A stretch of DNA of 64,000 nt, taken from NCBI GenBank assembly GCA_023898525.1, contig CP060227.1:493634-557633 (forward strand), in the 5' to 3' direction. The translations under genes and the position numbers were made by a program. The first letter of the stretch is position 1. Each line of letters starts with the position of its first letter. Origin of the DNA: Candidatus Nomurabacteria bacterium (GTDB lineage: Bacteria > Patescibacteriota > Minisyncoccia > Phycocordibacterales > UBA918). The notes under the pieces are model-generated. The model was not told the origin of the DNA. It made no database searches and saw only the letters and a program-made list of their open reading frames with translations. Below, one piece after another: positions 35,010 through 61,254 of this stretch.

Positions 35010-35726
35010 TTAGTCATTGCGATATATTTCGTCTTCAAAGTCCATTGCACCAGAATGTCGCAGTTCACCACTGCCTCGTAACTCCTTTTCAGGAAGAAGC
35101 GTGAACTTGGGCTGGTAGCCAGTCTCGTTGGTATATCGTTCAAATGGTTCTTCGTTGATACCAAACGCCTGACGTAGACCCATTGATAAGTCACTCTTTC
35201 GTTTTTCTACTGCGTTTGGTGAAGTAACACCGCAAACATTCATCAAATGCTGTTTCGTGGCAGGTATGTTTGGCTCACGTCCAAGCAAGGCAGACATCAT
35301 CCGAAGCAAAGCCCAACGGCGATCTGGTTTTTTCCATTCAGTGTTAGCCTGAGCGAAGCCGAGATCCTCATGTGAATATTTTCCGATGATTGTGTCTCCG
35401 TATTTCACCTCTACATCTTCGTTGTTTTTGAAGCTGATACTGAGTTCCTGCCACTTAGCGTTTTCTGGTAATTTAACCTTCGCCTCAGTGAACAAGACCT
35501 CTTTCTTGGTTTTAGCCTTCATTGAACTTGCTGACACGGGAGCTGATTCCGTTGATATCTCAGTCTCTGTCTCAGCGCCGTATACTTCCTGATAAATAAC
35601 TTGAAGCTCAGCAATGAAGCGGAGTGTTGGTTTTATTGGTTCTATTGCTTGTCGCACCTGATCCTCAAGAGCCTTGCGTTGCAGGAGAGCCTGACGGAGC
35701 GAAGTAAGTGTGTTTTTTGTGTACAT
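35010..35726 (-). CDS. Hypothetical protein (238 aa)
   Basis: No motif recognised. Confidence 0.35.
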   Translation of the reverse strand: MYTKNTLTSLRQALLQRKALEDQVRQAIEPIKPTLRFIAELQVIYQEVYGAETETEISTESAPVSASSMKAKTKKEVLFTEAKVKLPENAKWQELSISFKNNEDVEVKYGDTIIGKYSHEDLGFAQANTEWKKPDRRWALLRMMSALLGREPNIPATKQHLMNVCGVTSPNAVEKRKSDLSMGLRQAFGINEEPFERYTNETGYQPKFTLLPEKELRGSGELRHSGAMDFEDEIYRND

Positions 35727-35883
35727 ATACTCTAATTATACAACCGACTTTTACAGCGATAATATCCTTGTTTTAAGCCATATCCGTATTTTCAAACCGT
35801 TCTGAAAATGCTCTTAAAATAGCTGTTTGGGTGTCAGATTTGTAACATGTGGCTTTACTGAGCCATCGGCATATAATCACTTT

Positions 35884-37233
35884 ATGAATTATCAAATCGC
35901 CGCTCCGTCTGAGAAGCCCATCGTGCTCAAATACTGTATCTACGCTCGCAAATCCATGGAGCAAGAGGAACGCCAAGCGTTGTCTATCGACTCTCAGCTC
36001 AAGGAGATGAAGGAAATCGTTGACCGAGAGAAGCTCGATGTCGTAGCAATAAAAACCGAGTCGCACTCAGCCAAGCACTCAGGACAACGTGAGGTCTTCA
36101 TGGAAATGGTCACAGAACTCAAAGCTGGCAAGTACAACGCCATCCTTACCTGGAACCCAGACCGCCTCAGTCGTAATGCTGGTGACCTCGGCTTGCTGGT
36201 AGACATGATGGACAATGGCAAGTTGTTGGAGATTCGTACCTTCAATCAAGTCTTCTCCAACTCACCAAACGAAAAGTTCCTCCTCATGATTCTCTGCTCA
36301 CAAGCCAAGCTGGAGAACGATCAGAAAGGTATCAACGTGAAGAGGGGTCTGCGAGCTGCAGCTGCTAAAGGTCTCTGGCCCTGTGCCTATCCGCCACTCG
36401 GATACAGCAAGTCACGCATGAAGGGTGAAGAAGGAGTTGTGCATTTAAATAAGAAAGACGCTCCATTCATCAAGGAAGCGTTTCGGAAAGTAGCGTACGA
36501 GGGCTATTCAACCTACGCCATTGAACGCTGGCTCAAGGAAACTGGCATGACCACTTCCTCTGGCAAACCCCTGAATTACAGCCTCGTTCAAGCCATGCTC
36601 CACAACTCTTTCTACTACGGCTATTTTGAATTTCCGAAGAAGAGTGGACAGATATACAAAGGTGCACATAAGCCCGCCATTACCAAGAAGCTTTTCAATG
36701 ATGCACAGGAAGCAATTGCTCAGAAGGAGCGGAAGAAACGCTACCGTAAATCTAAGACTGCGCCGTTTGGTTTTCTTCACTTGATACGCTGTGGTACTTG
36801 TAGCTCGGGTATCACTGCCGAAGAGAAGTACAAAACTCTTAAAAGCACTGGTGAAGAAGCTGTCTACCGTTACTACGTCTGTTGCCGAAATCGTAACCGT
36901 GACTGTCGTGAGAAATATATTAGCGAGACTCAATTACTGGAAGAACTGTATAAAATTCTTGATGTCGTCGAGCTTGATGAAATTGGTATGCGAGAAATGC
37001 TCGAGTCTGAGATTGAGAAGTGGTACAAGGTGCGGGCATTTGTTCAAGGCAAACCCGTTGAAGAACGCACTGATGAGCAGAAGGAATACGACCTCCGTAA
37101 ATACGCCAAGATTATCTTTGAAGAGGGTCGTAACGATGAACAGCGTGAGATCTTGAAGTATGTAAAAGGCAGGCTGATTTTGAGGAACAAGCGAATATAT
37201 CTCGATACCGTTCCAGAAGAGGCAAAATCCTAA
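35884..37233 (+). CDS. Large serine recombinase, paralog 2
   Basis: YARKSMEQEE, LSIDSQ, ILTWNPDRLSRNAGDLG; ~60-70% identical to the other three copies. Confidence 0.85.
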   Translation: MNYQIAAPSEKPIVLKYCIYARKSMEQEERQALSIDSQLKEMKEIVDREKLDVVAIKTESHSAKHSGQREVFMEMVTELKAGKYNAILTWNPDRLSRNAGDLGLLVDMMDNGKLLEIRTFNQVFSNSPNEKFLLMILCSQAKLENDQKGINVKRGLRAAAAKGLWPCAYPPLGYSKSRMKGEEGVVHLNKKDAPFIKEAFRKVAYEGYSTYAIERWLKETGMTTSSGKPLNYSLVQAMLHNSFYYGYFEFPKKSGQIYKGAHKPAITKKLFNDAQEAIAQKERKKRYRKSKTAPFGFLHLIRCGTCSSGITAEEKYKTLKSTGEEAVYRYYVCCRNRNRDCREKYISETQLLEELYKILDVVELDEIGMREMLESEIEKWYKVRAFVQGKPVEERTDEQKEYDLRKYAKIIFEEGRNDEQREILKYVKGRLILRNKRIYLDTVPEEAKS

Positions 37234-45116: not shown

Positions 45117-45587
45117 CTAAAATCCAAATCTTTCCAGTATTTTTACAAATAAAGGCTCCTCAAGTAATTCTTCCTTTAGTCGACCTCTTAAAATAGATTC
45201 AATGTCATCAATATATTCTTCAGGGATTGGTATAACTAGAAGTGGCATAAAATGATGGTCTGTTAAAACCAGTAGTTGCGGACCGTTAGGGTCTTCTTCA
45301 TCAATATGAAAAGATTTGAGTGAAGAATAAGGATAGAGCTCATCATTTACCCTAATTCCTCGCACTGTTACCGCGAAAGGAATGATCGATGGCTTGCGCG
45401 CTGCCAACACCAAAAGCGCCACACCAGACACAGCCATCAGCAAAGCAAATAGGGTATTACTAAAAACCAAAGCAGAAATAACAACCGCCACAATTACAAT
45501 AATCAGTGAAAAATACCAATCACTCCCCTTTTCTACATGATGGTGTTCTGGGGCTTCCCAAGTGATAGCGCGAGCTGATGGTTCCAT
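45117..45587 (-). CDS. Hypothetical membrane protein with two TM helices followed by a soluble PH-like domain
   Basis: No catalytic motif. Confidence 0.35.
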   Translation of the reverse strand: MEPSARAITWEAPEHHHVEKGSDWYFSLIIVIVAVVISALVFSNTLFALLMAVSGVALLVLAARKPSIIPFAVTVRGIRVNDELYPYSSLKSFHIDEEDPNGPQLLVLTDHHFMPLLVIPIPEEYIDDIESILRGRLKEELLEEPLFVKILERFGF

Positions 45588-45827
45588 TGCAAAAATTATA
45601 GCACAAGGCAGTGTACATTTTGCAGGTTATTTGGTAGTATCTGTTGCTAACGGGCGTAAATAACCCCGTAGGAAGTAACTACAATCGAATATAAATGGAG
45701 GGATGGCTATTAAATCTAAACTGCTTTAGATTTAATCCGATCGTTCGCTAGAACGAATTACCGATGCTTTAGCGAGGTGATAGGGAGTGGTCAATGAATA
45801 ACAAATTGTAGAGGTAAAATTTAATAC

Positions 45828-45916
45828 GGAGAGATGGCTGAGTGGTTGAAGGCAGCGGTCTTGAAAACCGCCATACGTTTACGCGTATCGAGGGTTCGAA
45901 TCCCTCTCTCTCCGCC
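45828..45916 (+). tRNA. tRNA-Ser (anticodon TGA), class II
   Basis: GGAGAGA acceptor, anticodon stem GCGGT/ACCGC with loop CTTGAAA, long variable arm, T arm GAGGG-TTCGAAT-CCCTC, discriminator G, then CC. Confidence 0.75.
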
Positions 45917-45923
45917 GTTTAGA

Positions 45924-45950
45924 GCTAGCACGAGACACCTTATTTTAAGC
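45924..45950 (+). repeat. Direct repeat 1 of 2 (GCTAGCACGA-N6-TTATTTTAAGC) flanking the beta-lactamase gene; partner at 47083-47110
   Basis: The partner copy forms a 12-bp-stem terminator hairpin (GGCTAGCACGA...TCGTGCTAGCC + GTTTTT at 47082-47130). Confidence 0.55.
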
Positions 45951-46066
45951 CGTATTTCCGACTTTAAATTTGACAGTGTTTGAGGTGTTCAAAACTGTCT
46001 GTATTTCAGACATTCATAATTTTGAAAATAGCAACTCGTGTGTTTTTTGTTATAATTACTATTATT

Positions 46067-47020
46067 ATGAATACAAAACATGTCAGTATTGTAGTTTTAG
46101 TAGTGATTGCGTTAGGTTTATTTTATTATTTCTCACAAACCAACAACTCATCAAATTCTGAAACAACAACATCTGTAGAAAAACGAGACCAAGAAGACCT
46201 AATTAAAGGCATAACAAACATAGAAGATGTGTTGGGTGAGAATGCTCGAGTAGGCTTGTCGGTCGTAAATAGTGATGCGGATATAATTTTGCAGCATCGA
46301 GGTGATGAAAGGTTCCCTATGACGAGCACCTTTAAAACACTTGCGTGTGGTGTCGTGCTACAGAAGGTAGATGCTGGCGAAGAGTCACTCGATAGAGAGA
46401 TGTTAATAGGTGAAGAAGATATGGTTCCGTATGCCCCTGTCACGGAAAATCATGTTGGTGGTTTATTGACGCTGGGTGAGCTTTGTGAAGCAGCAATTAC
46501 AACAAGTGACAATGTGGCGGGTAACAAAATTTTGGAAACATTGGGTGGTCCTGAAGGATTTACGGCACTTTTGCGTAGTGTTGGAGATATTCAGACCCGT
46601 TTGGATCGTTGGGAAGTTGAGCTTAATGAGGCGGCTCCCGATGACCCTAGAGATACAACTACTCCAAACCAGATGAGTGAAACTCTACATACGTTTCTAA
46701 CAGGAAACACACTGTCTGATGAGTCGAAAAAACAATTGTCTGACTGGCTCTATGCACAGGCGGTAGCAGATTCATTGTTTCGTTCACGACTACCCTCAGG
46801 ATGGCAGATCGCAGATAAGTCCGGTGGCGGTGGATTTGGATCACGATCAATTGCTGCTATGCTCAAATTACCAGAAGGAGAAGCTTTCTTTGTTTCACTG
46901 TACATAACTAACACCGAGAAAGAAATGGCTGATCTTAATGTGGTGGTGGCTGATATTGGTGAAATGTTATTTGAATTCTTTTCAGGTAGTGAAGACTTAA
47001 CTGAGGCAGATGCGAAATAA
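46067..47020 (+). CDS. Class A (Ambler) serine beta-lactamase with N-terminal membrane anchor
   Basis: All four class A boxes are present: STFK, SDN, the omega-loop RWEVELNEAAPDDPRDTTTP, and KSG. The track ORF starts at 45980, but MNTKHVSIVVLVV at 46067 looks like the real start. Confidence 0.85.
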   Translation: MNTKHVSIVVLVVIALGLFYYFSQTNNSSNSETTTSVEKRDQEDLIKGITNIEDVLGENARVGLSVVNSDADIILQHRGDERFPMTSTFKTLACGVVLQKVDAGEESLDREMLIGEEDMVPYAPVTENHVGGLLTLGELCEAAITTSDNVAGNKILETLGGPEGFTALLRSVGDIQTRLDRWEVELNEAAPDDPRDTTTPNQMSETLHTFLTGNTLSDESKKQLSDWLYAQAVADSLFRSRLPSGWQIADKSGGGGFGSRSIAAMLKLPEGEAFFVSLYITNTEKEMADLNVVVADIGEMLFEFFSGSEDLTEADAK

Positions 47021-47143
47021 TCTGTCCAAAAGGTATACAGCTCGTGTAACGAGAGAAATTCCCTTACTCTCCGCCAGACTCGGCTAGCACGACTCGCTTT
47101 AATTTTAAGCGTCTCGTGCTAGCCGTTTTTCGTTATATGGTTT

Positions 47144-48502
47144 ATGTATATGACAAACATAAATCATGGGTCAATGGAAGTGGCGACCTTAGATAAACAA
47201 CTTCCGCAAATTAAATATTGTCTTTATGCTCGAAAGTCTATGGAAGACGAAGATAGACAGGCACTGTCTATAGACTCTCAGTTAAAAGAAATGAGAAAGA
47301 TTGCTGAGCGTGAAAATCTATTCATTTCAGCCGTTCGTACAGAAGCTCATTCAGCAAAGCTGTCAGGTCAAAGACCAGTCTTCAACAAAATCATTGAGGA
47401 AATAAGAAACGAGAGATTTAATGCAATCCTAACGTGGAATGCGGACAGGTTAAGCAGGAATGCTGGCGACTTGGGAGTTCTAGTTGATTTAATGGACCAA
47501 AATCAACTAACTGAGATACGGACATATAATCAAACATTTAGTAACTCACCAAATGAGAAGTTTCTTCTTATGATTTTGTGTTCACAAGCCAAACTTGAGA
47601 ATGACAACAAAAGTATAAATGTAAAACGAGGACTACGAATGAAGGTAGAAATGGGGTTATGGCCATGTATCGCACCCACAGGGTACTTAAATGATATGGT
47701 CCGTGGGCACGAAGGAAGAGTTATCGTTGATCCAGCACGGGCACACATCATTAGAAAAATGTTTGAACTAGTAGCTGAAGGCTGGACACAAAGACAGTTA
47801 CGGTTTTGGTTAAAAGATGAACTAGATTTCACCACCAGAACTGGCAAACATCTAAGTATGGGTAGTATTCAAAAGATTTTGAGTACGCCTTTTTATTATG
47901 GCGAGTTTGAATACCCTAAAGGTAGCGGTAAGTGGTACAAAGGTATTCACAAACCAATTATCACAAAAGAGTTATTCGATATAGTTAAAGCTCAAAATCA
48001 AGCCCGCAGAAAACAGAATTACATTTTCAGGAAAAATATTGCTTTCACCAAACTGATGAAGTGTGGTTTATGCGGTGGCAACGTAACTGCTGAGGAGAAA
48101 TTCAAAGCACTTAAAGACGGAACTATCGCAAGATACGTTTATTATGGCTGCACTCGATCGAAAGATGTGAACTGCAAAATTAAATACATCCGAGAAGAAA
48201 AGTTAATCGAAAAATTACGTGAGCTAATCGACAAAATATCTTTGGATGATTTAGGTCTTAGGGGTCAGTTTGAACAAGAGGTTGAGCGCATACATAAATT
48301 CAACTGTGATGTTATGGGAAAACCACCAGTTTACTCTGATGAGGAGCAGAGAGAAGTAGACATTAAGAAATACGTGAAGTATTTGCTCGCCTACGGAGAT
48401 ATAGATGAAAAAAGACATATTTTAATTAGTCTTAAAAACAAACTGATCTTGAAAGATGGCGAGGTGTATTTAGAAACTATTGATGATACTGAGGAAATTT
48501 AA
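47144..48502 (+). CDS. Large serine recombinase, paralog 3
   Basis: YARKSMEDED, LSIDSQ, ILTWNADRLSRNAGDLG. Confidence 0.85.
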   Translation: MYMTNINHGSMEVATLDKQLPQIKYCLYARKSMEDEDRQALSIDSQLKEMRKIAERENLFISAVRTEAHSAKLSGQRPVFNKIIEEIRNERFNAILTWNADRLSRNAGDLGVLVDLMDQNQLTEIRTYNQTFSNSPNEKFLLMILCSQAKLENDNKSINVKRGLRMKVEMGLWPCIAPTGYLNDMVRGHEGRVIVDPARAHIIRKMFELVAEGWTQRQLRFWLKDELDFTTRTGKHLSMGSIQKILSTPFYYGEFEYPKGSGKWYKGIHKPIITKELFDIVKAQNQARRKQNYIFRKNIAFTKLMKCGLCGGNVTAEEKFKALKDGTIARYVYYGCTRSKDVNCKIKYIREEKLIEKLRELIDKISLDDLGLRGQFEQEVERIHKFNCDVMGKPPVYSDEEQREVDIKKYVKYLLAYGDIDEKRHILISLKNKLILKDGEVYLETIDDTEEI

Positions 48503-48766: not shown

Positions 48767-49510
48767 TTAGAGAATATGCACTCCGAAAGCTTCGAGTTTA
48801 TCTTTCTTTTTCTCCCACTTGGGATATTTCTCGTCTAAAAATGCGAAGAACTTCTTATCGTGATTTTTGTATCGCATATGACAAAGTTCATGAACAATAA
48901 CGTAGTCAATACAGTCTTTTGATACGTGTATTAGTTTGGGATTAAGAATGATTTTGTCTTTGTTCACAAAACTACCCCAACGACGCTTCATGTCCCGAGT
49001 AGTCAAGGCTGGAGTATGTTTGTAATCAAAACGCTCAAGCATCTCGTTAAATCTTTCTTCGAAAACACTTTGTCGTTTTTGATCAAACCAAAGCTTAACA
49101 AGTTTTTGAGTATGGACACCGTCACTTAATGCCTTAGTGGTGGAAACCATTAGTACTCCTCGCAGAAGAGAAACAGAATCTATCTCTCCCTTTCGAACAA
49201 TTAACTTATGCTGTCTGCCAAGGTAGTGGAAACTTTCGCCAGAAACATACTCTTTGGTATACGTTTTACGTTGGTACTTACCAAAGAAGTTCAGTTGTTT
49301 CTGTAGCCAAAACCATTTCTTTTTCAAGAATTGCTCAATTCTTTCATCATCAGCTTCATGTGGACACTTAACACAAATCCGCATATCCGGAGTAACGGTT
49401 AGGCTGAGGGTTTTTCTATCTTGTTTAATGAGGTCGTAGCAGTAGACGAATGAGCCAAAAATAAATTCTTTTTGCTGTTTAGGAGAAGATTTCATGGTTA
49501 TTCTCAGCAA
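48767..49510 (-). CDS. YgjP/DUF45 (M48-like, HExxH) metal-dependent hydrolase commonly linked to type I R-M operons
   Basis: VHELCHM motif. It overlaps the hsdR stop by 32 nt. Confidence 0.65.
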   Translation of the reverse strand: MLRITMKSSPKQQKEFIFGSFVYCYDLIKQDRKTLSLTVTPDMRICVKCPHEADDERIEQFLKKKWFWLQKQLNFFGKYQRKTYTKEYVSGESFHYLGRQHKLIVRKGEIDSVSLLRGVLMVSTTKALSDGVHTQKLVKLWFDQKRQSVFEERFNEMLERFDYKHTPALTTRDMKRRWGSFVNKDKIILNPKLIHVSKDCIDYVIVHELCHMRYKNHDKKFFAFLDEKYPKWEKKKDKLEAFGVHIL

Positions 49511-52500
49511 GCATAAGTGTATTGTTTATGATGGTTCGAATATCATCATTGGTAAGATCAATCTGCTTTTCAGTCTTTACTGTGTCGTAGAGGTAATCAT
49601 CAACCTTATTCATGATTTTTCTTTTCACATCTAAGTTTTTGTACCAATCAACAATAGCTTCTGCTTTAACGATATTGAAAATATCGAGGACTATTGTAAC
49701 GAATTCTTCTTCTGAAAGTTTAAAGTTGCCAAATGATTCTCTTAAGTTTCGATAAAACACATCTGAACCACTAACAGACTCAATCGCGGTTGGTAGACTG
49801 TCATCCTTTTTATTAACAACATCATCGCTAATTAGCTTCAATTGCTTAAGAGCAGCGATGTCAGCCATTTTGCCCTCATGCATTTTCTTTAAGATGTCTG
49901 ATATTTTCTTTGAGAATCGCTCGTAGAATTCAGGATCAGAATCCATCTTTTCAGTAATGTTCTTTTGAGTCTGTGCCGCAATCGCTTCTGCCTTAGATTT
50001 ATCTGATCCTAGTGTTTCGATTGCTTCCTCAAACTTTTCGCGATCAGTAATATTGATTTGTTTAGTTAAAAGCTCGACACTTTGGGCATCTACGTACTTA
50101 TCAAGAATCCCAACCAGTGATTGTTTGTATTCCGCCAAATCAACTCGGTCTGCATACTTCAAACTAGCAGTCTTTCGAAGCTCCATAAACTTCTTAAGTT
50201 CACGAGTGTACATATCGAGATTATCAAACTCATGAACAAAGTCTTGAAGCACAAAACACTCATTTAGATTTTTGATGAAAGCATTGAGAGTTTTGTAGAA
50301 AGTCTCTCGGGTCGGGGCATCATCCAGTAACTGTAAAAACTCTTCATCGTCAGATGAGCCTTTAATAGTTTTAAAGATGTCTTGAAGAAGACTGTAACTT
50401 TCTTCCAACTCCTCAACCTTCTTACTCACATCAACCATGGTGCCTTTCACGTCTTCTTCATCGTAGTTACCAAACAGCTTCATCGCTGTATCAATGTTCT
50501 TGGCATTTTCAGAGTAGTCGATGATATACCCTGCTGTCTTAGGCAACTTCTTATTTTCATGCAATCGGTTTACACGAGCAATTGCTTGTAAAAGGTTATG
50601 GTCACGCAAGTCTTTTGCTAAGTAGAGCACTGTATTTCGAGGGGCATCAAAGCCGGTCAAAAGCTTATCTACAACGATGATGATTTCGATTCCATCATCA
50701 TTGTATTTAAAGCTATCAATCACATCTTTTTCATACTTCGCTACACTACTGTGATTCTTTCGTACACTATCAAGGTACTTTACCACCTCAGCCTTATGGG
50801 TGTTTGCTTCGTCACCATCATCATGCTCGTCTGAAATAACTACTGCAGTACGAATTTTCGCCCTGTCTTGGAAGAACTTCTGAAACAAAACAGCCGAATA
50901 CTTTGAAGGAGCAACCAACTGTGCTTTAAGACCAGTATCTTGGAAATGTTCCGTGAAGTGCTTTTCAATGTCATACCCAATTTCAACAATACGCTGAGGA
51001 TTGTCTTTAATAACTTTAGTACTTATGTATTTCTGAATCTCTCTTTTTTGCTTTTCGTTTAAGTCTTCAGTAATTCGATCTACCTGTCTATCAATTTGCT
51101 CAGCATTCTGTTCCATTGGCACATAACGCCCCTCATAGATAAGCGGAAGAATGATGTTATCAGCCAGAGCATCATCAATCGTGTATTTGTCGATATATCC
51201 ACCAAACTTTTTCCAACTAGCCTTCTCTGACTTCATGAGTGGGGTACCAGTAAAGCCGATGTAACACGCATTTGGAATAATGCGATTCATCTCAAGATTG
51301 GCGATACCGCTTTGACTACGGTGTGCTTCGTCAATCAAGACGAAAATATTTTGATCGTCATCAATAAAGCCAGCCTTTTTCTTAGCTGCTGAATCAAACT
51401 TATCGATCACCGTTGTAATTACACCGAGGTTTTTATCCTTGATGAGATCAAGCAGGTTTTGTCCGCTGGTAGCCTGAATAACCTCTTTCTTGAGATTACA
51501 GTTTTTAAAGGTATCTCGAATTTGTTTATCCAAGTCTTTTCGGTCAGTCACAATTAGAACCCGAGGGTTGCTAATCTCAGGATTTTCAATCAGCGCCTTC
51601 ACGAACATGACCATTGTCAGTGACTTTCCTGACCCTTGTGTATGCCACACCAAACCACCTTTTCGACGAGTAATACCTGTATCAGTAGTCTCAGTTTCTT
51701 TAATGTGGTTCAACATTTTGCTGATAGCAAAATACTGCTGGTAGCGAGAAAGTTTTTTAACACCTGCATCAAAAAGAATGTAGTTCTTTGTGAGATCAAG
51801 TAAACGCGCAGGTTCAAAAAGCGACAAAATACCTCGATCTTGCTCAGTCGGTAACCGATTCAGTTTTTGCTTATGGCCAGTAGTGTATCCATTCAAATCA
51901 GTCAGTACTTGTTTGTATATTTCTGCATCTACTGGTGTTGCAATCAGCTTTTTAATCTTTGCGTCTAGTTCTTTTGGTGTTGTACCTTTTTCTTTCCAGA
52001 CAGCATAAAACTTATTTGGTGTACCAGTCGTACCGTATTGCAATTCTTTGCCATTTGTCCCTACAAGCAACTGGGTAAAGGTATACAGTTTTGGGCAAAA
52101 CTCAGGTCCCTGATTACGATTCATCTGATTAATCGCTTCAACTACGGGAACACTAGACTTTTTATTCTCAATAACTGCAAATGGGATACCATTTACGAAA
52201 CAAACGATATCAGGGCGAATGTTTTGCTTACCACTGGCCACATATTCAGCTGTGATATGGAAGGAGTTGTTTTCAGGATGTTCAAAATCAATAAAACGAA
52301 AGTTCTTTGAGACCGTCTTACCACCCGCACTCACCTTAATAGTCTTACCGCCCGAAGTTGGCATGATGATGTTGTAGATTTTTTGTGAAGTATCAATCAG
52401 GCCCTCGTACTGGATATGTTCAAGCTCTTCAATCGTGTCTCGAACGTCTTTCTCACTAAACTTGTATGATTTACCATCAACCTCATATCCGTTGATATCC

Positions 52501-52667
52501 ATCAATTTACGTTCAGCAATATCTGCCAGTATGAAATTGCTGGTGTCGCCACCACGTTCCTTGAGCACATCCTCAGCAGAAATGTATTGGTAGCCCATAG
52601 CAATCAGTAACTCAAGGGTGGTGAGTTGAGACTGTCGGGCTTCGTCAAAGTGTACTTTTTCTAACAT
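49479..52667 (-). CDS. hsdR: Type I restriction enzyme R subunit (second system)
   Basis: WHTQGSGKSLT, VLIDEAHRSQ; 1062 aa. Confidence 0.9.
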   Translation of the reverse strand: MLEKVHFDEARQSQLTTLELLIAMGYQYISAEDVLKERGGDTSNFILADIAERKLMDINGYEVDGKSYKFSEKDVRDTIEELEHIQYEGLIDTSQKIYNIIMPTSGGKTIKVSAGGKTVSKNFRFIDFEHPENNSFHITAEYVASGKQNIRPDIVCFVNGIPFAVIENKKSSVPVVEAINQMNRNQGPEFCPKLYTFTQLLVGTNGKELQYGTTGTPNKFYAVWKEKGTTPKELDAKIKKLIATPVDAEIYKQVLTDLNGYTTGHKQKLNRLPTEQDRGILSLFEPARLLDLTKNYILFDAGVKKLSRYQQYFAISKMLNHIKETETTDTGITRRKGGLVWHTQGSGKSLTMVMFVKALIENPEISNPRVLIVTDRKDLDKQIRDTFKNCNLKKEVIQATSGQNLLDLIKDKNLGVITTVIDKFDSAAKKKAGFIDDDQNIFVLIDEAHRSQSGIANLEMNRIIPNACYIGFTGTPLMKSEKASWKKFGGYIDKYTIDDALADNIILPLIYEGRYVPMEQNAEQIDRQVDRITEDLNEKQKREIQKYISTKVIKDNPQRIVEIGYDIEKHFTEHFQDTGLKAQLVAPSKYSAVLFQKFFQDRAKIRTAVVISDEHDDGDEANTHKAEVVKYLDSVRKNHSSVAKYEKDVIDSFKYNDDGIEIIIVVDKLLTGFDAPRNTVLYLAKDLRDHNLLQAIARVNRLHENKKLPKTAGYIIDYSENAKNIDTAMKLFGNYDEEDVKGTMVDVSKKVEELEESYSLLQDIFKTIKGSSDDEEFLQLLDDAPTRETFYKTLNAFIKNLNECFVLQDFVHEFDNLDMYTRELKKFMELRKTASLKYADRVDLAEYKQSLVGILDKYVDAQSVELLTKQINITDREKFEEAIETLGSDKSKAEAIAAQTQKNITEKMDSDPEFYERFSKKISDILKKMHEGKMADIAALKQLKLISDDVVNKKDDSLPTAIESVSGSDVFYRNLRESFGNFKLSEEEFVTIVLDIFNIVKAEAIVDWYKNLDVKRKIMNKVDDYLYDTVKTEKQIDLTNDDIRTIINNTLMLAENNHEIFS

Positions 52668-52673
52668 AGTAAT

Positions 52674-53843
52674 TTATTTAGTGGCTGATAATGATTTAAC
52701 TGTTCTAATATTCCCGTGAACCAGGTTTTCTAGTAAGTATTTTCTCTGTTCTCTTACAAGTTTTAATTTGTCTTTTAAGTTCTCTAGTTCAAGTTCGCAA
52801 GTTTCAAATATCTCAGCAATTTTGATTTGATCGTCAGTATTCTCTGGAAGACTTACCTTTGTCTGCAAGAATTGGTTTTTTGACAAATTATATCTACTGA
52901 CTCCCTGAGCTATTCTAAACATATGTTTCCTAAATGACTTACCCCTAAACAAAAAACGAGCAAAACGTGGCTCTAAAATATTTTGTTTTGGTCTAAACCC
53001 AAAACAAAAGCTGTTTAGCAAGACTTTATTTTTACTTTCATCTAAGAAAACTGAGGACATACCTACATCCTGTGGTGTTTCTGATGATGTGGTGAATATC
53101 AAATCACCATACTCTAAGTAATTCTGCTTCTCTCCTTTTTGGATAGAAACTAAACCATATTGATCAGGATGAATCTTTGAGTTTGAAAAAACATTCATGT
53201 ATGTGACATATGGTGTGCCAAAACCGAAGTCGTCTTTTGATTTTCCTGTAAGTCCAGTAAAGGTTACTCCTAATTGGGAGATGGTATAAGTTTTCCATTC
53301 GCTTTTTGAACCTGGTACTTTAATTCGTTCATTCAATACTTCTTCTAGTAGACCTTTCTTTGTTTGTTCCTTTTTACGAATAGTTCTTTGTAGTTCATTA
53401 ATATAGCAATCCCATGTAGTAAGGATTGAAACAATTTTCTCTTGTTCTGCAGTTGGAGGGAAATCAAAAGGTATTTTTTCAATAGTCGTTTTAGATAAAC
53501 TTGGTACGCCAGAAGCTTCGTTGTATTTAAGCCAATTAATTTTCTGAAAAACGTAGTTGATGTATTTAGCAGTAGTGTCCTTGAAGTTGTAGGTATAGAA
53601 AAGCGTATCTACTGTCCAAAATTTTCCATTGTAGTAAAACGGTTTGTTAATAGTTCCTTTTCTGCCAATAAAAACTGTCTCGCCTTCGTGCAACGGGGTA
53701 TCTACGTGACGCATTAAACCACCTGTTCCAAACACTGGAATATCTCCGTCTTTGAGATGCTTATGGTCTTTGCCACTTCCTATTTTCAGCACGTCGCCAA
53801 GCTTTTTTCGAGACCATCCTTTAACTAAAGTTTCTTTTTTCAT
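52674..53843 (-). CDS. hsdS: Type I R-M specificity subunit, full length (second system)
   Basis: Two TRDs. Its N-terminus is homologous to the hsdS at 24248..25390. Confidence 0.8.
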   Translation of the reverse strand: MKKETLVKGWSRKKLGDVLKIGSGKDHKHLKDGDIPVFGTGGLMRHVDTPLHEGETVFIGRKGTINKPFYYNGKFWTVDTLFYTYNFKDTTAKYINYVFQKINWLKYNEASGVPSLSKTTIEKIPFDFPPTAEQEKIVSILTTWDCYINELQRTIRKKEQTKKGLLEEVLNERIKVPGSKSEWKTYTISQLGVTFTGLTGKSKDDFGFGTPYVTYMNVFSNSKIHPDQYGLVSIQKGEKQNYLEYGDLIFTTSSETPQDVGMSSVFLDESKNKVLLNSFCFGFRPKQNILEPRFARFLFRGKSFRKHMFRIAQGVSRYNLSKNQFLQTKVSLPENTDDQIKIAEIFETCELELENLKDKLKLVREQRKYLLENLVHGNIRTVKSLSATK

Positions 53844-53844
53844 A

Positions 53845-54282
53845 TTACTTTTGAATTTTCTCTAAGTCAGCTGGCATATACCGCACCACGTTACCTTGCT
53901 TATCGACTGAAAAGACATGAAGCAAGAGCTTCTTGGCAATTTGATATGGAATACGTTTGATAGCCTTGTCGGCTGATTTTTTAGGCAGAGCAATACCGTA
54001 GTAGTAGCGTGTAGAACCAGAAGTGTTCATGCGAGTAATGATCTGGCCAAGTGAGTAAATAAAAGCCACCTCTTCACTTGAAGAATTATTTGAACCCTTA
54101 CACTCAATAAGGTAATAGCGTGAGTATCGTGTGTGGACCGCTTTAATATCGACTCCTTTCTCTCGTAGGGTAGCCACCTTAACTAACCGCCAATGATGTT
54201 TCGACAGCCATTCAATCACTCTTGTTTGCACAAAGTCTTCGGTGATGTCTCGTGAGGTATCTTTTTTCTTAGCATTACTCAT
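53845..54282 (-). CDS. Small PD-(D/E)xK nuclease-fold protein (Mrr/NERD-like)
   Basis: GVDIKAV...YYLIECKG fits D...ExK. Confidence 0.45.
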   Translation of the reverse strand: MSNAKKKDTSRDITEDFVQTRVIEWLSKHHWRLVKVATLREKGVDIKAVHTRYSRYYLIECKGSNNSSSEEVAFIYSLGQIITRMNTSGSTRYYYGIALPKKSADKAIKRIPYQIAKKLLLHVFSVDKQGNVVRYMPADLEKIQK

Positions 54283-54284
54283 AT

Positions 54285-55178
54285 TTAATTGTCGATAGCT
54301 ATTACTTGGGAAGGCACATTGTCACCGTTTTCCTTAGGTGCCATGATGACCTGCTTGTAGTGATTGCAGGCAGCGTTCAAATATTCCTGTAACTCGTCTA
54401 GATTAACAAGTCCGTTTTTTATATCGTCTGGATGTATGGCTATGATGAGTCTTTCACAAACATTAATTTGCTTATTAGCTTCAATGTAACTATCAATAAT
54501 CTCCTTGGCTGTCGTCATCTTAGTCAGCGACGCATTACGCCCATGGCCAGAATTTACTAGAGGAATTGTCACATATTTATTTCTACCCGATTCATTGCCA
54601 ATAAAATCCCAAACTGAAGCAAGCGAAGTAATCAGGTCATCAATACTTGCCTTAACACGATTGTTTTCTAGTTTGTGTGAGTTTGCTAGTAAATAAAATC
54701 TCTTATTGTTATTTTCCACCTCAACTGTCGTACCAATTGGATTTTCAGTATTTTGAGAAACTTTATCTTTTATATCAGCCTCTAAATGCTCGTGCCTCCC
54801 ACCGTAGTAGTCACAAATTAACTTGTTTTGTAGACTATTTGCCTTTGCAACGTTCCCGCCTAAAGTCAGGTCAAAGTGATCATTTATTGGTACTATCAAA
54901 GCACCTTTATTTTTAAATGCGTCTCCAACTTTAACTTCAATAAAATTATCTTTTTTGCGAATCCTGCTTGAAAAAGAAGTTTTCGGTTTATTCTTTAAAA
55001 TTGCAATAATAAAAATTAGCACCATTATTGGTAATGCAAACCACGGTTCTTTGAAAAGATGATCAACAACCCCGCTGGTCATGTAGCTACTCATCTCAAC
55101 GGCCAACCAAAATAAACCTAAGCCAGTTACTGTGTCAGCTACAATCAGTTTCCATTTTTTGATCCAGCGTAAAATCAT
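54285..55178 (-). CDS. thsA: Thoeris type II ThsA-like effector: N-terminal TM helices + C-terminal Macro domain
   Basis: ALIVPINDHFDLTLGGNVAKA aligns with the macro motif AIVNAAN-x6-GGGV, and SGHGRNAS with the second macro glycine-rich loop. Two N-terminal TM helices. Confidence 0.55.
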   Translation of the reverse strand: MILRWIKKWKLIVADTVTGLGLFWLAVEMSSYMTSGVVDHLFKEPWFALPIMVLIFIIAILKNKPKTSFSSRIRKKDNFIEVKVGDAFKNKGALIVPINDHFDLTLGGNVAKANSLQNKLICDYYGGRHEHLEADIKDKVSQNTENPIGTTVEVENNNKRFYLLANSHKLENNRVKASIDDLITSLASVWDFIGNESGRNKYVTIPLVNSGHGRNASLTKMTTAKEIIDSYIEANKQINVCERLIIAIHPDDIKNGLVNLDELQEYLNAACNHYKQVIMAPKENGDNVPSQVIAIDN

Positions 55179-55678
55179 AGTCCCAGATTTGTATATATCG
55201 AATTACCGTAATGGTATGCACCTGTCTTACCTTGTGCTCGATATGACTTGTGATCTTCTGGCCATTCGCGAATGGCTTTTGCCACAATTGATTTATTGAA
55301 ACTTACGTGCACCGCAAGTTCCCCAGTCAAAATGGCAGGACACAAATCATCCTTATCTCTTTTACCGTTTAGATTGACAACTACTATAGGAATGTCTTTT
55401 TTGATTGCTTGTTCGATTTCCCAGCGAACAAATTTGTATAGATATTTTGTGTTGTTACCCACCAAAAGTAGAAAGACACGGGTATTGGAAAGACGTTCCC
55501 GCAACTTTGCCTTAATTGTCTCCTCAGAAGAATAGGGCATTAGGTTGTTTAGATCATGTGCGTCATAAAAACCAAATGCACTGCCGTCTGTCTTTCGCCA
55601 AGCCTGCATTAGTCGGTAGTAACGAATATCGTTATCAGCATCAAACGCAACGTATGCTTTGTTAGTATAGGTGCTCAT
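55175..55678 (-). CDS. thsB: Thoeris ThsB-like TIR-like domain protein (DUF1863 type)
   Basis: KAYVAFDADND...RVFLLLVGNNTKYLYKFVRWEIEQAIKKDIPIVVVNLNG matches the MTH538 TIR-like pattern. It overlaps thsA by 4 nt. Confidence 0.6.
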   Translation of the reverse strand: MSTYTNKAYVAFDADNDIRYYRLMQAWRKTDGSAFGFYDAHDLNNLMPYSSEETIKAKLRERLSNTRVFLLLVGNNTKYLYKFVRWEIEQAIKKDIPIVVVNLNGKRDKDDLCPAILTGELAVHVSFNKSIVAKAIREWPEDHKSYRAQGKTGAYHYGNSIYTNLGL

Positions 55679-55679
55679 A

Positions 55680-57017
55680 TTATTTGCTATTTTTAGTTGC
55701 TATATCTTTAACATCTTTCACGCTCTCAATAACTTCATTTTTCATCTTTTTATAGAACCCTTCCACATGAAAGCGTTCTGAAACACGGTCAATTATTGTT
55801 TCGCCCCGACCAAGATGCTCTGCGGGATTATGTTCAATAGCTTCGAGAAGTATTTGAGCCAATTTGTCCTTATTTGCAGTGTCTAACTGATATGATTTGT
55901 CTCCCGTATTAAACAATAGATACATCTCTACGACTCTAAGTTTGTGATTATATTCTTCAAATAAGCGTTTACGTTGAGAGATATTTCTTTGCCCGTACCA
56001 TGCGATCCAGATTAAAGGAATTGAAATAATGGTCTTTACGTAGATCAGCTCAAGTGCAGAGGGAGTGACACCTTCAGCAGTGAGACTATTGAGAACTATT
56101 TCTGCAGTCTTCTCATTCACAAAAATGAGAGACACACCTACAAGAGGTAATATGAACATCGCATAGTTCATAACTGAGCCAACGTGACGACCTAAAATAT
56201 TATGAAAAAATATAAGGACATTTTCGATGTGTGCACCTTTAATGAATTCTTTTCGCTTGAACTTTGAATATTCAGATTTAGATTCTGTGTAAGCGTTTAG
56301 TAAAGTTCTGGTGGTTGCATCAGATAGAAGAGAGTTTACATCTTCACGCTTAGTATCAATGTCAGTCCTCAGATCTTTAAGATACTTTCTTGTTTCTTCT
56401 ATTTCTGGAGTTACTTCGGTGTCAATTTTTTTCTTAAAAAGCTCCGCTTTCTTAATGTTAGCTTCAAGATTTTGAATTTCACTATTCTCACCCTCAGGAG
56501 CATCAAACAACTCTTCGTATTTTTCGGTGATTTCTGTGTATATTCTTTTTGTCTCTTCTTCAATGCCGTCAGTCTCTGTGAGTTTTGTATAGAAATCACG
56601 AATTTCCTTTGCTTTACCTGAGGTTCCATCACCGCCTAGCAAATCAACATAAAAATCTGTGATTTTTTGTTGAGAATCCTTTATATCAGTTTGTATTGAA
56701 TCTGGGTTTGAAATCAGTTCAGCGTGATAGGCCTTAATAGCATCAACTTGTGTTTGTAGTGCATTAACAACAGAAGTATCTGCGATAGATCCGTTGGGAA
56801 AGATTTTTGTGTACGCATTATTAATATCCTGAATTTTTTGTTCTATGGCAGGCAAAACTGCTTCAGACCCATTATCTCCTTCAAAAAACTTTTTGTAGAG
56901 TTCATTGATTGATCCTATTTCTTCAAGCGATGCCTTGATCAGATCCCACAGTTCTTCCTTAGTTGGAGATTTTGCGCTTGGGTCTATTTGCGAAAGTAGT
57001 TCGTTAAGCTTGCTCAT
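55680..57017 (-). CDS. Hypothetical 445-aa protein: long N-terminal coiled coil plus 3-4 C-terminal TM helices, embedded between hsdM and Thoeris
   Basis: No catalytic motif. TM segments include YAMFILPLVGVSLIFV and IISIPLIWIAWYG. Confidence 0.4.
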   Translation of the reverse strand: MSKLNELLSQIDPSAKSPTKEELWDLIKASLEEIGSINELYKKFFEGDNGSEAVLPAIEQKIQDINNAYTKIFPNGSIADTSVVNALQTQVDAIKAYHAELISNPDSIQTDIKDSQQKITDFYVDLLGGDGTSGKAKEIRDFYTKLTETDGIEEETKRIYTEITEKYEELFDAPEGENSEIQNLEANIKKAELFKKKIDTEVTPEIEETRKYLKDLRTDIDTKREDVNSLLSDATTRTLLNAYTESKSEYSKFKRKEFIKGAHIENVLIFFHNILGRHVGSVMNYAMFILPLVGVSLIFVNEKTAEIVLNSLTAEGVTPSALELIYVKTIISIPLIWIAWYGQRNISQRKRLFEEYNHKLRVVEMYLLFNTGDKSYQLDTANKDKLAQILLEAIEHNPAEHLGRGETIIDRVSERFHVEGFYKKMKNEVIESVKDVKDIATKNSK

Positions 57018-57020
57018 AAA

Positions 57021-58529
57021 TTATTTGATACCTAATTCTTTTAAATAAACTTCCATCTGTTTTTCCAGCTTCTTTAGCTCAGGTTCAAGCTTTGCCAGCT
57101 CTTTCAAGTTCGCTTCAATGTCTACAGGCTCCTCTTCCTCAAAGGTATCTACATACCGTGTGATGTTCAGGTTAAAATCATTCTCCTCAACCTCAGCCAA
57201 GTCAACCTTGCGAGCAAACTTTTCTACATCTTTCCGCTTCACGAATGTATCGTAAATTTTATTGATGTGGTCTTCGGTAAATATGTTTTGAGCTTTGCCA
57301 GCTTTAAACTCTTTCGATGCTTCAATAAAGAAGATGTCTTTCTTCATTTCGTTAGCGCCACCTTTCTCACGTGAGCGGTCGATTACTAAGACTGCAACTG
57401 GAATACCCGTGGTTTGGAATAGTCCAGCAGGTAAACCAATTACCGCATCAATGATGTTTTCTTTAATTAGTTGCTCACGAATTTTTCCCTCTGCACCGCT
57501 TCGGAAGAGAACACCATGAGGAACAATCACTGCTACACGACCAGTCTTAGGTTTAGCGGTTTCGATCATGTGGGTAATGAATGCAAAATCCCCCTTGTCT
57601 TTAGGTGGTACTCCTCGCCAGAAGCGATTGTACGCATCAGACTCTGCATGCTCTGCACCCCACTTCTTCAGGGAGAATGGTGGGTTTGCTACAACTACAT
57701 CGAAGTGCATGAGTTGGTCATTTTCAACTAAGAGCGGGTTATTTAGTGTGTCGCCCCATTCAATACGGGCTGAGTCTTTACCATGCAAAAACATGTTCAT
57801 ACGAGCAAGCTGATAGGTAGCACCAGTAGATTCTTGCCCATAGAGCGCATAGTTCTTTGAACCTTTCTTTTCTACTTCTTCACCAGCTAAAAGCAGAAGG
57901 CCGCCCGAACCACAAGCAGGGTCGGCTATACGGTCACCTTCTTTAGGTTGCGCTAGCATGGCTACTAACTGAGCTACGGACCTCGTCGTGAAAAATTCAC
58001 CCGCCTTTTTTCCAGCAGCTGCACCGAAGCGCTCAATCATGTACATGTATGAGTTTCCAATGATGTCATCTCCAACATCAGACAGGTCGATTTTTGCGAA
58101 ATCTTGAATCAAGTTGCGAAGCATCTTATTTCGCTGTGGTAGTTTGCCAAGCAGTGCTTCTGAATTGAAATCAACACTAAACACACCTTCGAGCTTATCG
58201 CTGTTAGCGTCTTCAATACGATGGAGGGCTTTGTTTATCTCATCGCCGATATTATCTTCTTCAATTTTGCTGTAGATGTAGTCAAAAGATGATTTGGGAG
58301 GTAGGTAGAAACGGTCGAGTTTCATTTTCTCCTCAATACGCTTTTCGTCATCGCCAAATCGCTCTTTGTACTCTTGGTACTTCTTTTTGTTTTGATCACT
58401 CAAATACTTAAAAAACAACATCGGCAACGCATAGTCCTTATACGTTTCAGCCGCCAATTGACTGCGGGAAGAATCAGCCGCTGACCAGAGTACTTTATTG
58501 AGTTCTTCTTGTGTGAATTTTTTAGTCAT
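57021..58529 (-). CDS. hsdM: Type I R-M N6-adenine methyltransferase subunit (second system)
   Basis: VVANPPFSLKKWG. Confidence 0.9.
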   Translation of the reverse strand: MTKKFTQEELNKVLWSAADSSRSQLAAETYKDYALPMLFFKYLSDQNKKKYQEYKERFGDDEKRIEEKMKLDRFYLPPKSSFDYIYSKIEEDNIGDEINKALHRIEDANSDKLEGVFSVDFNSEALLGKLPQRNKMLRNLIQDFAKIDLSDVGDDIIGNSYMYMIERFGAAAGKKAGEFFTTRSVAQLVAMLAQPKEGDRIADPACGSGGLLLLAGEEVEKKGSKNYALYGQESTGATYQLARMNMFLHGKDSARIEWGDTLNNPLLVENDQLMHFDVVVANPPFSLKKWGAEHAESDAYNRFWRGVPPKDKGDFAFITHMIETAKPKTGRVAVIVPHGVLFRSGAEGKIREQLIKENIIDAVIGLPAGLFQTTGIPVAVLVIDRSREKGGANEMKKDIFFIEASKEFKAGKAQNIFTEDHINKIYDTFVKRKDVEKFARKVDLAEVEENDFNLNITRYVDTFEEEEPVDIEANLKELAKLEPELKKLEKQMEVYLKELGIK

Positions 58530-59106
58530 GTTGTTTTGTAAGGTTAGTAAATGTTGCTTCGACGATTTGTTGTTTTAAATACTGGCGACGATCGACAATT
58601 GATTGTTGGGCTTGAATGTTTTCATGCAGTGCTACGATTGCTTTTTGCTTCTCTAGCTCTGGCACTGGAATTTTTATGTGTATGAGTTCCCGCCGGGGTA
58701 AGGCCCCAATGTATGAACCAGTGACGATATTAGCCAGTGAGTCTTGTCCCTCTTTTGAATTGAGGTAGTGAGATAGAAACTCTGGAAGCACCTTGCTCGT
58801 ACTTATTCGAATAATGTGTACAGATGCCGATGCAATAACATTCTGAGCATCAGACATGAAGACAGCTGCACGAAAGGCACCAGCCTTCATACCTCGTGCC
58901 ACAATTAGAACATCATTTTTTTGGAGGTACCTGTCGTCAGGAGGGAGGTCAAGCGATATCTTGGTCAATGAACTCACATCCGAGACTGGGACACCTTGTA
59001 CCAAGTCACGAGCCTGAAATACCAGTGTATTGCCGTTGCGCGTTTCTTCAATAGCTCCGCGAAAAGCGTAGCCTGGAGTTACTTGGGCAATATCTGACAA
59101 TTTCAT
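58522..59106 (-). CDS. hsdS: Half-size type I R-M specificity subunit (single TRD)
   Basis: 194 aa. Its C-terminal conserved helix (ELEKQKAIV) is typical of HsdS. Confidence 0.65.
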   Translation of the reverse strand: MKLSDIAQVTPGYAFRGAIEETRNGNTLVFQARDLVQGVPVSDVSSLTKISLDLPPDDRYLQKNDVLIVARGMKAGAFRAAVFMSDAQNVIASASVHIIRISTSKVLPEFLSHYLNSKEGQDSLANIVTGSYIGALPRRELIHIKIPVPELEKQKAIVALHENIQAQQSIVDRRQYLKQQIVEATFTNLTKQHD

Positions 59107-61253: not shown

Positions 61254-61254
61254 A

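Follow-up and report, generated by a model that had tools for sequence, protein, structure and literature searches.

The DNA analysed here, hereafter the window, is a 64,000-nt stretch of contig CP060227.1 (assembly GCA_023898525.1, positions 493,634 to 557,633, forward strand) from a Candidatus Nomurabacteria bacterium of the candidate phyla radiation (CPR). We focused on a gene for a predicted class A beta-lactamase (bla), which lies between an intact tRNA-Ser(UGA) and the gene of a large serine recombinase (LSR1), and which an initial annotation, made from the letters of the sequence, had presented as a mobile resistance cassette bounded by 28-nt direct repeats. The features at this locus are the following, where L numbers denote the related loci used for comparison.

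45117-45587, 156-aa DUF5673 membrane protein, between tRNA-Arg(GCG) and tRNA-Ser(UGA)
45828-45916, plus strand, intact tRNA-Ser(UGA) (ARAGORN; Rfam RF00005, 59.7 bits)
45901-45953, plus strand, left repeat (DR1): tRNA 3' end, spacer gtttaga and the 5' arm of a terminator, GCTAGCACGAGAC, ACCTTATTTTAAGC
45910-47358, plus strand, 1,449-nt block 100% identical in L001 (Logan SRR32022551), with flanks 45-77% identical
45917-45998, plus strand, native-type tRNA-Ser 3' flank, homologous to L037 and L009 (other Paceibacteria)
46048-46056, plus strand, TGTTATAAT, candidate extended -10 box (TGnTATAAT), 10 nt before the bla ATG, read by eye
46067-47020, plus strand, predicted class A serine beta-lactamase, 317 aa: N-terminal helix, S/T/N-rich linker and TEM-like catalytic domain
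47060-47112, plus strand, right repeat (DR2): partial tRNA-Ser 3' end with CCA (TCCCTTACTCTCCGCCA), spacer agactcg and terminator 5' arm
47083-47130, plus strand, 41-nt hairpin and T-run, an intrinsic terminator (dG -30.6 kcal/mol, z = -6.5)
47144-48502, plus strand, large serine recombinase LSR1, 450 aa (PF00239, 1.4e-18; PF07508, 2.4e-13; PF13408, 6.7e-07)

The bla product carries all four class A boxes that had been reported behind an N-terminal membrane anchor, namely STFK (aa 87-90), SDN (aa 147-149), RWEVELNEAAPDDPRDTTTP (aa 181-200) and KSG (aa 251-253), and they are preceded by a predicted hydrophobic helix (aa 6-25) that follows a K/H N-terminus and leads into a low-confidence S/T/N-rich linker. 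STFK aligned with S70/K73 of TEM-1, SDN with the S130-D-N loop and KSG with K234-S-G; in the omega loop, R181, E183, N187 and D196 corresponded to R164, E166, N170 and D179, and R244, N276 and the C77/C123 pair were also conserved. The identity of ~50% to mature TEM-1 in this alignment was independently confirmed by tblastn to annotated blaTEM genes. The class A model of NCBIfam (NF033103, bla_class_A) scored 281.8 bits against a cut-off of 200, and Pfam assigned Beta-lactamase2 at 2.5e-36. Every named sub-family cut-off was missed, the best being CARB/PSE/RTG (307.7 against 430), with TEM at 238.5 against 625 and SHV at 242.5 against 640, and all plasmid-borne matches were below 60% identity. 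A sequence search of the PDB gave 8.1e-83 to 8gij, an engineered TEM-1 variant, and 3.1e-69 to TEM-1 itself (1axb group). The AlphaFold model, built with 29 homologs, had a predicted local distance difference test score (pLDDT) of 89.4 (>95 in the catalytic domain), and Foldseek aligned it with TEM-1 crystal structures at a root-mean-square deviation (rmsd) of 1.0-1.2 Å and a TM-score of 0.96 over 260 residues. Taken together, these results identify a genuine class A serine beta-lactamase of the TEM/SHV/CARB group, as had been proposed, and a new, deeply branching member with predicted activity.

We then compared the locus with its relatives by three routes: the flanking 156-aa gene, the closest recombinase homologs, and a scan with the left-repeat junction. 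The 156-aa DUF5673 query returned 28 species-representative loci from Paceibacteria, Nomurabacteria and Kaiserbacteria. The order tRNA-Arg(GCG), DUF5673 gene, tRNA-Ser(UGA) was kept in most of these 28 related species genomes, and bla was found within 10 kb of the syntenic tRNA-Ser in none of them (0/28). The DUF5673 protein itself changes fast (43-67% identity for the orthologs in L003-L032) despite the stable synteny across Paceibacteria. bla was also absent between tRNA-Ser and recombinase in L031 and L032, where an intact tRNA-Ser(UGA) with CCA is followed by a 6-nt spacer, a 41-nt GCTAGC...GCTAGC hairpin, tgtttttcgttatatggtttatgt (ending TTTTTCGTTATATGGTTTATGT) and the recombinase ATG. 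Positions 47060-47250 of the window were colinear at 84% with this bla-less succession of tRNA 3' end, spacer, hairpin and recombinase, from which we read DR2 as the tRNA-Ser 3' end with the native terminator and the recombinase, the tRNA body being replaced by bla. Judged from these alignments, bla is a ~1.16-kb insertion ahead of a resident recombinase-headed island at the 3' end of tRNA-Ser(UGA).

The direct repeats (GCTAGCACGA..TTTTAAGC) were found at 45924-45950 and 47083-47110, as annotated, but their extent had been understated. The full repeat spans 53 nt, of which 36 are identical (68%), with three exact 9-10-nt blocks shared between DR1 and DR2, and the left copy begins with the final 16 nt of tRNA-Ser(UGA). 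A second block, TCCCTCTCTCTCCGCC (45901-45916) and TCCCTTACTCTCCGCC (47060-47075), recurs at the same 1159-nt spacing; this pattern has 2 matches in the window against 0.01 expected, so chance does not account for the repeats. Exact copies of GCTAGCACGA are confined to 45924 and 47083, plus an inverted one at 47114. At the distal boundary, a partial tRNA copy occupies 47060-47076 (14/16 nt matching, plus CCA), and the right 28-nt copy makes up the left side of a near-palindrome of 41 nt (47083-47123), after which comes TTTTT. The equivalent hairpins of the window and L031-L034 have folding energies of -30 to -35 kcal/mol (z-scores of -5.5 to -7), and across these five loci 88% of the cells are paired and 4 of the 15 pairs change on both sides. 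The hairpin of DR2 is accordingly a terminator native to the junction of tRNA-Ser and recombinase. DR1 alone does not fold (dG -11 kcal/mol, z = -0.01), no hairpin 3' arm was found near it, and a perfect 13-nt complement of its arm, GTCTCGTGCTAGC, lies 1.17 kb off at 47111-47123. In L003 a short hairpin, GCTAGCACGAGAC-gctt-GTCTCGCGCTAG, stands directly 3' of tRNA-Ser with the same 13-nt arm as DR1, and L025 has a similar hairpin. The notion that the repeats might be ordinary terminators, which the initial annotation had named as a refutation, is borne out for the right copy. DR1 and DR2 each consist of the 3' end of tRNA-Ser joined to the 5' arm of the tRNA's terminator, and between them lies ~1.05 kb of foreign DNA whose sole gene is bla. 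They mark the boundary of the insertion as a partial-tRNA scar, and any role as recombination sites is putative.

On the left side, positions 45828-46000 of the window were colinear with the tRNA and flank of L037, a locus found by a metagenome scan with the left-repeat junction as pattern (137/173 columns, 79%). The L009 flank has the same look as that of L037 and aligns to the window over ~85 nt. The homology to this native flank stops near 45998, which is the start of the bla-specific sequence. In L037, the DNA behind tRNA-Ser reads GCTAGCTCGAGACACCTTATTTTAAGTCGTATT...GATAGTGTCTGAGG...GTGTCTAGTGCTAGC, ahead of a gene like that of penicillin-binding protein 2 (PBP2). ARAGORN reads the L037 tRNA (13917-14004, minus strand) as tRNA-Ser with anticodon ACT, which is unusual for bacteria, and its 3' flank holds a long GCTAGC hairpin with a ~75-nt loop ahead of the PBP2-like transpeptidase and a 2194-aa open reading frame (ORF). 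A sub-threshold Rfam match to sX4 at 45812-45992 was rejected as the embedded tRNA.

Probably, the inserted DNA carried its own tRNA-Ser 3' end and half a terminator, so that the tRNA stayed intact, while the original 3' end and the complete terminator came to lie beyond bla; such displacement by the inserted copy would account for the 'direct repeats'. Only bla lies between the repeats, with no integrase inside the module and the recombinase outside it. A simple crossover at ATTTTAAGC was rejected as the unique insertion joint because the left flank is already colinear with the native flank. An integron cassette was also rejected: the recombinase is of the serine type, there is no IntI and no attC core (RYYYAAC/GTTRRRY), and the hairpin arms read GCTAGC....

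Evidence for recent exchange came from L001, a 5-kb contig with the gene order tRNA-Arg, 156-aa gene, tRNA-Ser, bla, recombinase. Its 156-aa protein is merely 45% identical to that of the window, the intergenic DNA cannot be aligned, and the genes downstream differ (MtN3-like, thioredoxin-like and antiporter-like). Homologs of these downstream genes, and of the L037 penicillin-binding protein (PBP), were absent from the window and the other loci. Identity with the window starts just after 45909, a position that together with 45832 makes up a compensated acceptor-stem difference between the two tRNAs. It stops abruptly 215 nt into the recombinase ORF, ~250 nt past DR2, and beyond this edge the identity of the DNA falls to 77% and, further on, to about 50% (52-77% over the remainder of the recombinase gene). 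Since 1,449 nt are identical while the adjacent ortholog is 45% identical, the tract has in all appearance spread laterally in recent time, and we take this as strong evidence for a very recent transfer of the bla-containing tract between divergent Nomurabacteria lineages, whose sequences for a neighbouring core protein diverge by more than 50%. The lateral mobility that had been ascribed to the insertion beside tRNA-Ser and recombinase is therefore upheld, with the identical block in L001 as the sole direct sign of movement. A further contig, L002 (SRR12358676), was 100% identical to the window over 1,985 nt, with the same arrangement in an independent assembly.

The tract would most simply have moved by recombination in conserved flanks and not through excision at the repeats, with tRNA-Ser on the left and the hairpin and recombinase 5' end on the right; this right flank retains 80-85% identity between the window and L032 or L034. 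The recombinase gene of L001 (2129-3457) is a chimera. Its initial 215 nt, with the ATG equal to window position 47144 as starting point, are identical to LSR1 (~62 codons when counted from the ATG at 47174), and the rest encodes a protein 77% identical to LSR2, a second recombinase that lies on the opposite strand in the window. An exchange between paired recombinase paralogs could also have made this chimeric gene. The island behind bla seems to be mobile as well. The flanking 156-aa protein of L032 is 57% identical to that of the window, its recombinase 84% and that of L031 91%, and this difference between recombinase (84-91%) and adjacent core gene suggests that the recombinase-headed island itself is laterally mobile.

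Taken together, we consider it probable that a TEM-like bla was inserted at tRNA-Ser ahead of a resident island, that the repeats stem from displacement of the old tRNA end, and that the gene has recently spread by recombination in its flanks. Several points weigh on the other side. The GC content of bla (42%) and its GC content at third codon positions (GC3, 0.32, or 32%) match the host (window, 41.5% GC). The insertion history is not unique: the remnant in DR2 matches a different tRNA-Ser, that of the L037 type, and could be left over from another tRNA-Ser gene in tandem, such as L047 has. The left joint of the L001 block, 7 nt from the tRNA end, would fit a site-specific event better than homologous recombination, and L001 is a 5-kb short-read contig, for which a chimeric assembly seems unlikely. 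Lastly, the hydrolysis of penicillins is a prediction.

The reading closest to the initial annotation is that the bla segment (1,159 bp) is a recombinase-less cassette, the repeats are attachment (att) sites, and LSR1, alone or with LSR2, moves the cassette in trans. We regard it as unlikely, though several observations speak for it. Such movement in trans can be likened to that of pseudo-SCC elements (SCC, staphylococcal cassette chromosome) without ccr genes or of cis-mobilizable elements. The 3' end of the target gene forms part of the imperfect repeats; recombinases of this clade stand directly after tRNA-Ser in at least five independent contexts; and the left edge of the L001 block falls within the last 7 nt of the tRNA. 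Moreover, an in silico recombination of DR1 with DR2 gave a site with a well-formed hairpin of 40 nt, which shares 85% identity with the bla-less L032 locus, and a circle junction 79% identical to a native tRNA-Ser flank. However, the only transfer tract observed overruns the right repeat by ~250 nt, the DR2 hairpin is conserved in bla-less loci and hence explained as a terminator, and the left flank (45828-46000) is colinear with the native flank, so that no crossover is needed there. Neither an empty site (predicted junction GCTAGCACGAGACACCTTATTTTAAGCGTCTCGTGCTAGC) nor a circle (predicted junction GCTAGCACGACTCGCTTTAATTTTAAGCCGTATTTCCGAC) was seen. Where the island ends on its far side, a third copy of the repeat was sought (22-mer with 3 mismatches, CTCTCCGCCA, Smith-Waterman against shuffles), and none stood above noise. 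Long repeats are not diagnostic either, since a 2-bp core suffices for serine recombinases. A scan of viral contigs for the hairpin pattern found nothing, nor did one for LSR1 relatives, and in a search of phage DNA the tRNA alone matched. Thus, of the mobile beta-lactamase cassette first proposed, the enzyme and its mobility stand, while the att sites and the discrete, repeat-bounded unit are not supported as proposed: the right copy is part of a conserved terminator also present in relatives without bla, and the recombinase belongs to an island that exists without the gene.

It is also conceivable, if rather improbable, that the right partial tRNA is what is left of another tRNA-Ser gene, formerly in tandem between tRNA-Ser(UGA) and the recombinase, with bla arriving, or the tRNA decaying, by illegitimate recombination; the repeats would then be paralogous tRNA ends with similar terminators. 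Such arrangements exist, as L047 and L048 have tRNA-Ser(UGA), a small ORF, tRNA-Ser(GCT) and a recombinase in succession, and L035 has tRNA-Ser(GCT) and a recombinase. Further, the remnant variant CCCTTACTCTCC is the exact 3' end of the L037 tRNA-Ser (CCCTTACTCTCCGC), unlike the end of the tRNA in the window. In L031 and L032, the closest relatives without bla, a single tRNA-Ser(UGA) nevertheless stands directly before the hairpin, and the remnant, just 16-22 nt long and ending exactly at CCA, is typical of an integration scar.

It seems very unlikely to us that the protein lacks hydrolytic activity or has another specialisation within the fold, be it as a sensor, a PBP-like protein or a weak enzyme of the LRA type, and that it confers no resistance. 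Hydrolysis is predicted from sequence, the protein scores below every named NCBIfam sub-family cut-off, and CPR 'class A-like' enzymes are reported to be weak, with side activities (PMC9145738). On the other hand, it passes the class A equivalog cut-off, shares ~50% identity and 1 Å rmsd with TEM-1, and keeps its catalytic and omega-loop residues intact, including E166 and N170, which sensors and PBPs lack. A PBP- or LRA-like homolog, which the initial annotation had foreseen as a possible outcome, is therefore not what the family and residue evidence indicates, and activity is predicted. An artefact, in which bla is a contaminant or was mis-assembled into a CPR contig, or L001 is chimeric, so that there would be neither a CPR beta-lactamase nor a transfer, is scarcely credible: metagenome-assembled genomes (MAGs) and short-read contigs can be chimeric and assembly graphs may cross in conserved stretches such as the tRNA and the recombinase 5' end, but bla and its flanks occur in three independent assemblies (the 1.09-Mb NCBI contig, Logan SRR12358676 and SRR32022551), GC and codon use are host-like, and L001 has its own tRNA variant (C at the equivalent of 45909) 7 nt from the window-type flank, which needs real spanning reads.

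A Candidatus Nomurabacteria cell has no outer membrane. No lipobox cysteine and no obvious AxA site were present at the N-terminus of the beta-lactamase, and its helix would fit a signal-anchor or a Sec signal in a bacterium without periplasm, a topology that is predicted. Most likely, the enzyme would be exported and either tethered by this helix or secreted, hydrolysing penicillins outside the cytoplasmic membrane, at the cell surface; this would shield the cell's own peptidoglycan synthesis and perhaps that of a host bacterium. If the enzyme is active, CPR cells could protect themselves, and possibly their hosts, from beta-lactams. As to expression, a scan for consensus sigma-70 promoters found no two-hexamer site on the plus strand. 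Transcription might come by read-through from the tRNA promoter, which we propose because no terminator lies between tRNA and bla, and/or from its own TGTTATAAT box, which would give a near-leaderless mRNA. The transcript would end at the native hairpin (47083-47130).

Regarding the origin of bla, a 100% identical NCBI protein, 'MAG: class A beta-lactamase [Candidatus Nomurabacteria bacterium]' on a 1,087,875-bp contig, shows that the gene was already annotated. Among 5.8 billion proteins it forms a single cluster; other matches are at most ~55% identical, with the nearest natural sequences at 54%. Named relatives are proteobacterial, from Marinobacter, Halomonas, Thalassospira, Roseovarius and similar genera. 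Of the homologs without a name, the nearest two have molybdopterin oxidoreductases, PhaC and GntR regulators as neighbours, in DNA of 54-58% GC, and the genomes that carry them are metabolically rich and not CPR. A recent import from Proteobacteria was rejected on account of the host-like GC. The codon fractions of bla also correlate with those of core genes (0.80), and this host-like composition suggests that the original cross-phylum acquisition was not recent or that the donor lineage is unsampled.

Compared with the TEM, SHV and CARB (PSE, RTG) enzymes of Ambler class A and Bush group 2, the protein shares all motifs, the catalytic residues, C77-C123 and R244; it comes to ~50% identity and a predicted fold within 1.0-1.2 Å of TEM-1, and its best hidden Markov model is CARB/PSE/RTG. 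It differs from them by K234, an N-terminal helix that looks non-cleavable, the S/T-rich linker and an acidic C-terminal tail of 12 aa, and by its host, a CPR bacterium of 41% GC, with the nearest natural sequence 54% identical. PSE/CARB enzymes carry R234. Beta-lactamase-like genes are numerous in reduced CPR genomes, according to two surveys (Maatouk et al. 2021, PMC8651080; 2022, PMC9145738), and a Saccharimonadia population (PATE_102) rose from 0.006% to 4.4% under penicillin (PMC10031880). These two lines make a selective benefit of bla plausible. The earlier surveys used loose domain criteria, and their main texts mention no Nomurabacteria, mobile context or lateral transfer; the gene described here, by contrast, is a close TEM-type one with a defined insertion site and evidence of recent exchange. 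It would place an apparently fully competent penicillinase of close TEM type in an ultra-small episymbiotic bacterium, and resistome studies gain a concrete CPR enzyme instead of loose 'beta-lactamase-like' matches.

The architecture resembles known islands. In Prochlorococcus, tycheposons integrate successively at one tRNA with partial tRNAs left between them, and a minority use large serine recombinases (10.1101/2020.12.28.424599, preprint). The present locus shares with tycheposons and tRNA islands an insertion that abuts the 3' end of a tRNA and leaves this tRNA whole, a partial tRNA between modules, a newer module that pushes the older inward, and cargo of defence and niche genes. Unlike tycheposons, the bla module has no recombinase or replication genes of its own, its repeats agree at only 68% of positions, the window shows no partial tRNA at the far end, and excision of the bla module is putative. 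We describe the bla element as a recombinase-less module in a tRNA-linked composite island, at a locus that follows a known pattern of successive integrations.

SCCmec offers a second parallel. This element inserts at rlmH, brings resistance through PBP2a and has recombinase-less (ccr-less) modules in composite islands. The likeness lies in large serine recombinases, insertion at the 3' end of a conserved gene, imperfect repeats that include the gene end, tandem or composite arrays with recombinase-less modules, and a cargo of beta-lactam resistance and type I restriction-modification (R-M). In contrast to SCCmec, the target here is tRNA-Ser and not rlmH, the resistance protein is a class A hydrolase and not PBP2a, and the recombinases are convergent and 11 kb apart instead of forming an operon. 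Against the Ccr models of NCBIfam, LSR1 scored 123.9 for CcrB (cut-off 900), 56.3 for CcrA (700) and 41.1 for CcrC (900); the best match is CcrB, yet at this score LSR1 is not a Ccr ortholog. A bolder idea, to which we give little credence, is that Paceibacteria have an SCC-like system, in which this recombinase clade targets tRNA-Ser 3' ends or terminators, builds defence islands and mobilises recombinase-less modules in trans. Its recombinases may often come as convergent pairs, and modules such as bla may be bounded by partial-tRNA/terminator repeats. If true, it would be a platform for the capture and exchange of resistance genes in CPR bacteria. The locus presents no new mechanism of resistance or mobility; it is a clear case of a known type of resistance island.

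The resident island begins with the recombinase, whose presence after bla, reported in the initial annotation, was borne out by Pfam at 47144-48502. LSR1 has the Resolvase, Recombinase and Zn_ribbon_recom domains and a YARKS...SQ motif, and its likely start is 47150 (MTNINHG, conserved in relatives). Its closest homologs, in L031 (91%), L032 (84%), L033 (82%) and L034 (81%), are each followed by a type I R-M operon, so that in all four the recombinase is again linked to type I R-M, with other defence genes embedded. The remainder of the island comprises:

48767-60488, minus strand, YgjP-like peptidase, HsdR, HsdS, ThsA (Macro), ThsB (TIR), HsdM, half-HsdS and LSR2 (Pfam, PADLOC)
59154-60488, minus strand, large serine recombinase LSR2, convergent with LSR1 and 11 kb apart

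The Thoeris pair ThsA (Macro) and ThsB (TIR), at 54285-55678, sits inside the type I R-M operon between hsdS and hsdM, and the same position holds SduA_C and T5orf172 in L032 and Hypoth_Ymh in L031. A repeat search over 47.1-61.3 kb found only the homology between LSR1 and LSR2, with no hsdS shuffling repeats. Recombinases of the LSR1 clade often occur in convergent pairs (L042, L045, L047, L048).

Homologs of LSR1 stand directly after tRNA-Ser in L031 and L032 (TGA) and in L035 (GCT), at 75-91% identity, and in L047 and L048 at 72%. For the recombinase clade as a whole, the tRNA-Ser directly upstream is UGA in the window, L001, L031 and L032, and GCT in L035, L047 and L048. Partial tRNA-Ser 3' ends were found downstream of tRNA-Ser in L006, L011, L013, L022, L028 and L047. 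Recombinases after tRNA-Ser, together with these scattered partial ends, mark tRNA-Ser as an integration hotspot in the clade, and studies of CPR genome dynamics gain a defined hotspot of tRNA-Ser with defence islands headed by serine recombinases. In L047 (3211-4000), tRNA-Ser(UGA) is followed by two ~115-nt tandem repeats, each ending in a partial tRNA 3' end, and further on by an 81-aa ORF, tRNA-Ser(GCT) and two convergent recombinase genes. L006, L011, L013, L022 and L028 have similar short copies of partial tRNAs, in direct or inverted orientation.

The window holds four large serine recombinase paralogs that are 44-57% identical (27258-28655, 35827-37233, 47144-48502 and 59154-60488), all within 64 kb of a genome of ~1.09 Mb. 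More than 8000 relatives of the family were counted at E<=1e-30; where a source is named, the closest of them are Paceibacteria/Pacebacteria MAGs. A second type I R-M operon (21417-28655) adjoins LSR4 (27258-28655), with HsdS at 24248-25390, HsdM at 25393-26961 and a 933-aa ORF at 21417-24218 that is probably HsdR, judging from size and position; the link between recombinase and type I R-M is thus present twice in 64 kb. The region 28652-37233, with GC up to 0.50, encodes an M78/IrrE-like peptidase, ThiF, a TerS-like helix-turn-helix (HTH) protein, two N6/N4 DNA methylases and LSR3, and is probably a degraded prophage or mobile element. Beside LSR2, the region 60789-63765 carries a terminase large subunit (61255-62694), a TerS-like HTH protein and a DNA methylase, and is a probable prophage that runs past the window end. 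Lastly, the DNA upstream of bla (45938-46050) and that upstream of LSR3 (35708-35779) share two exact 13-14-mers, GTGTGTTTTTTGT and CCTTRTTTTAAGCC, and several 8-mers, in swapped order and not colinear; the global alignment of the two regions is weak, and each shared word is rare by shuffling.

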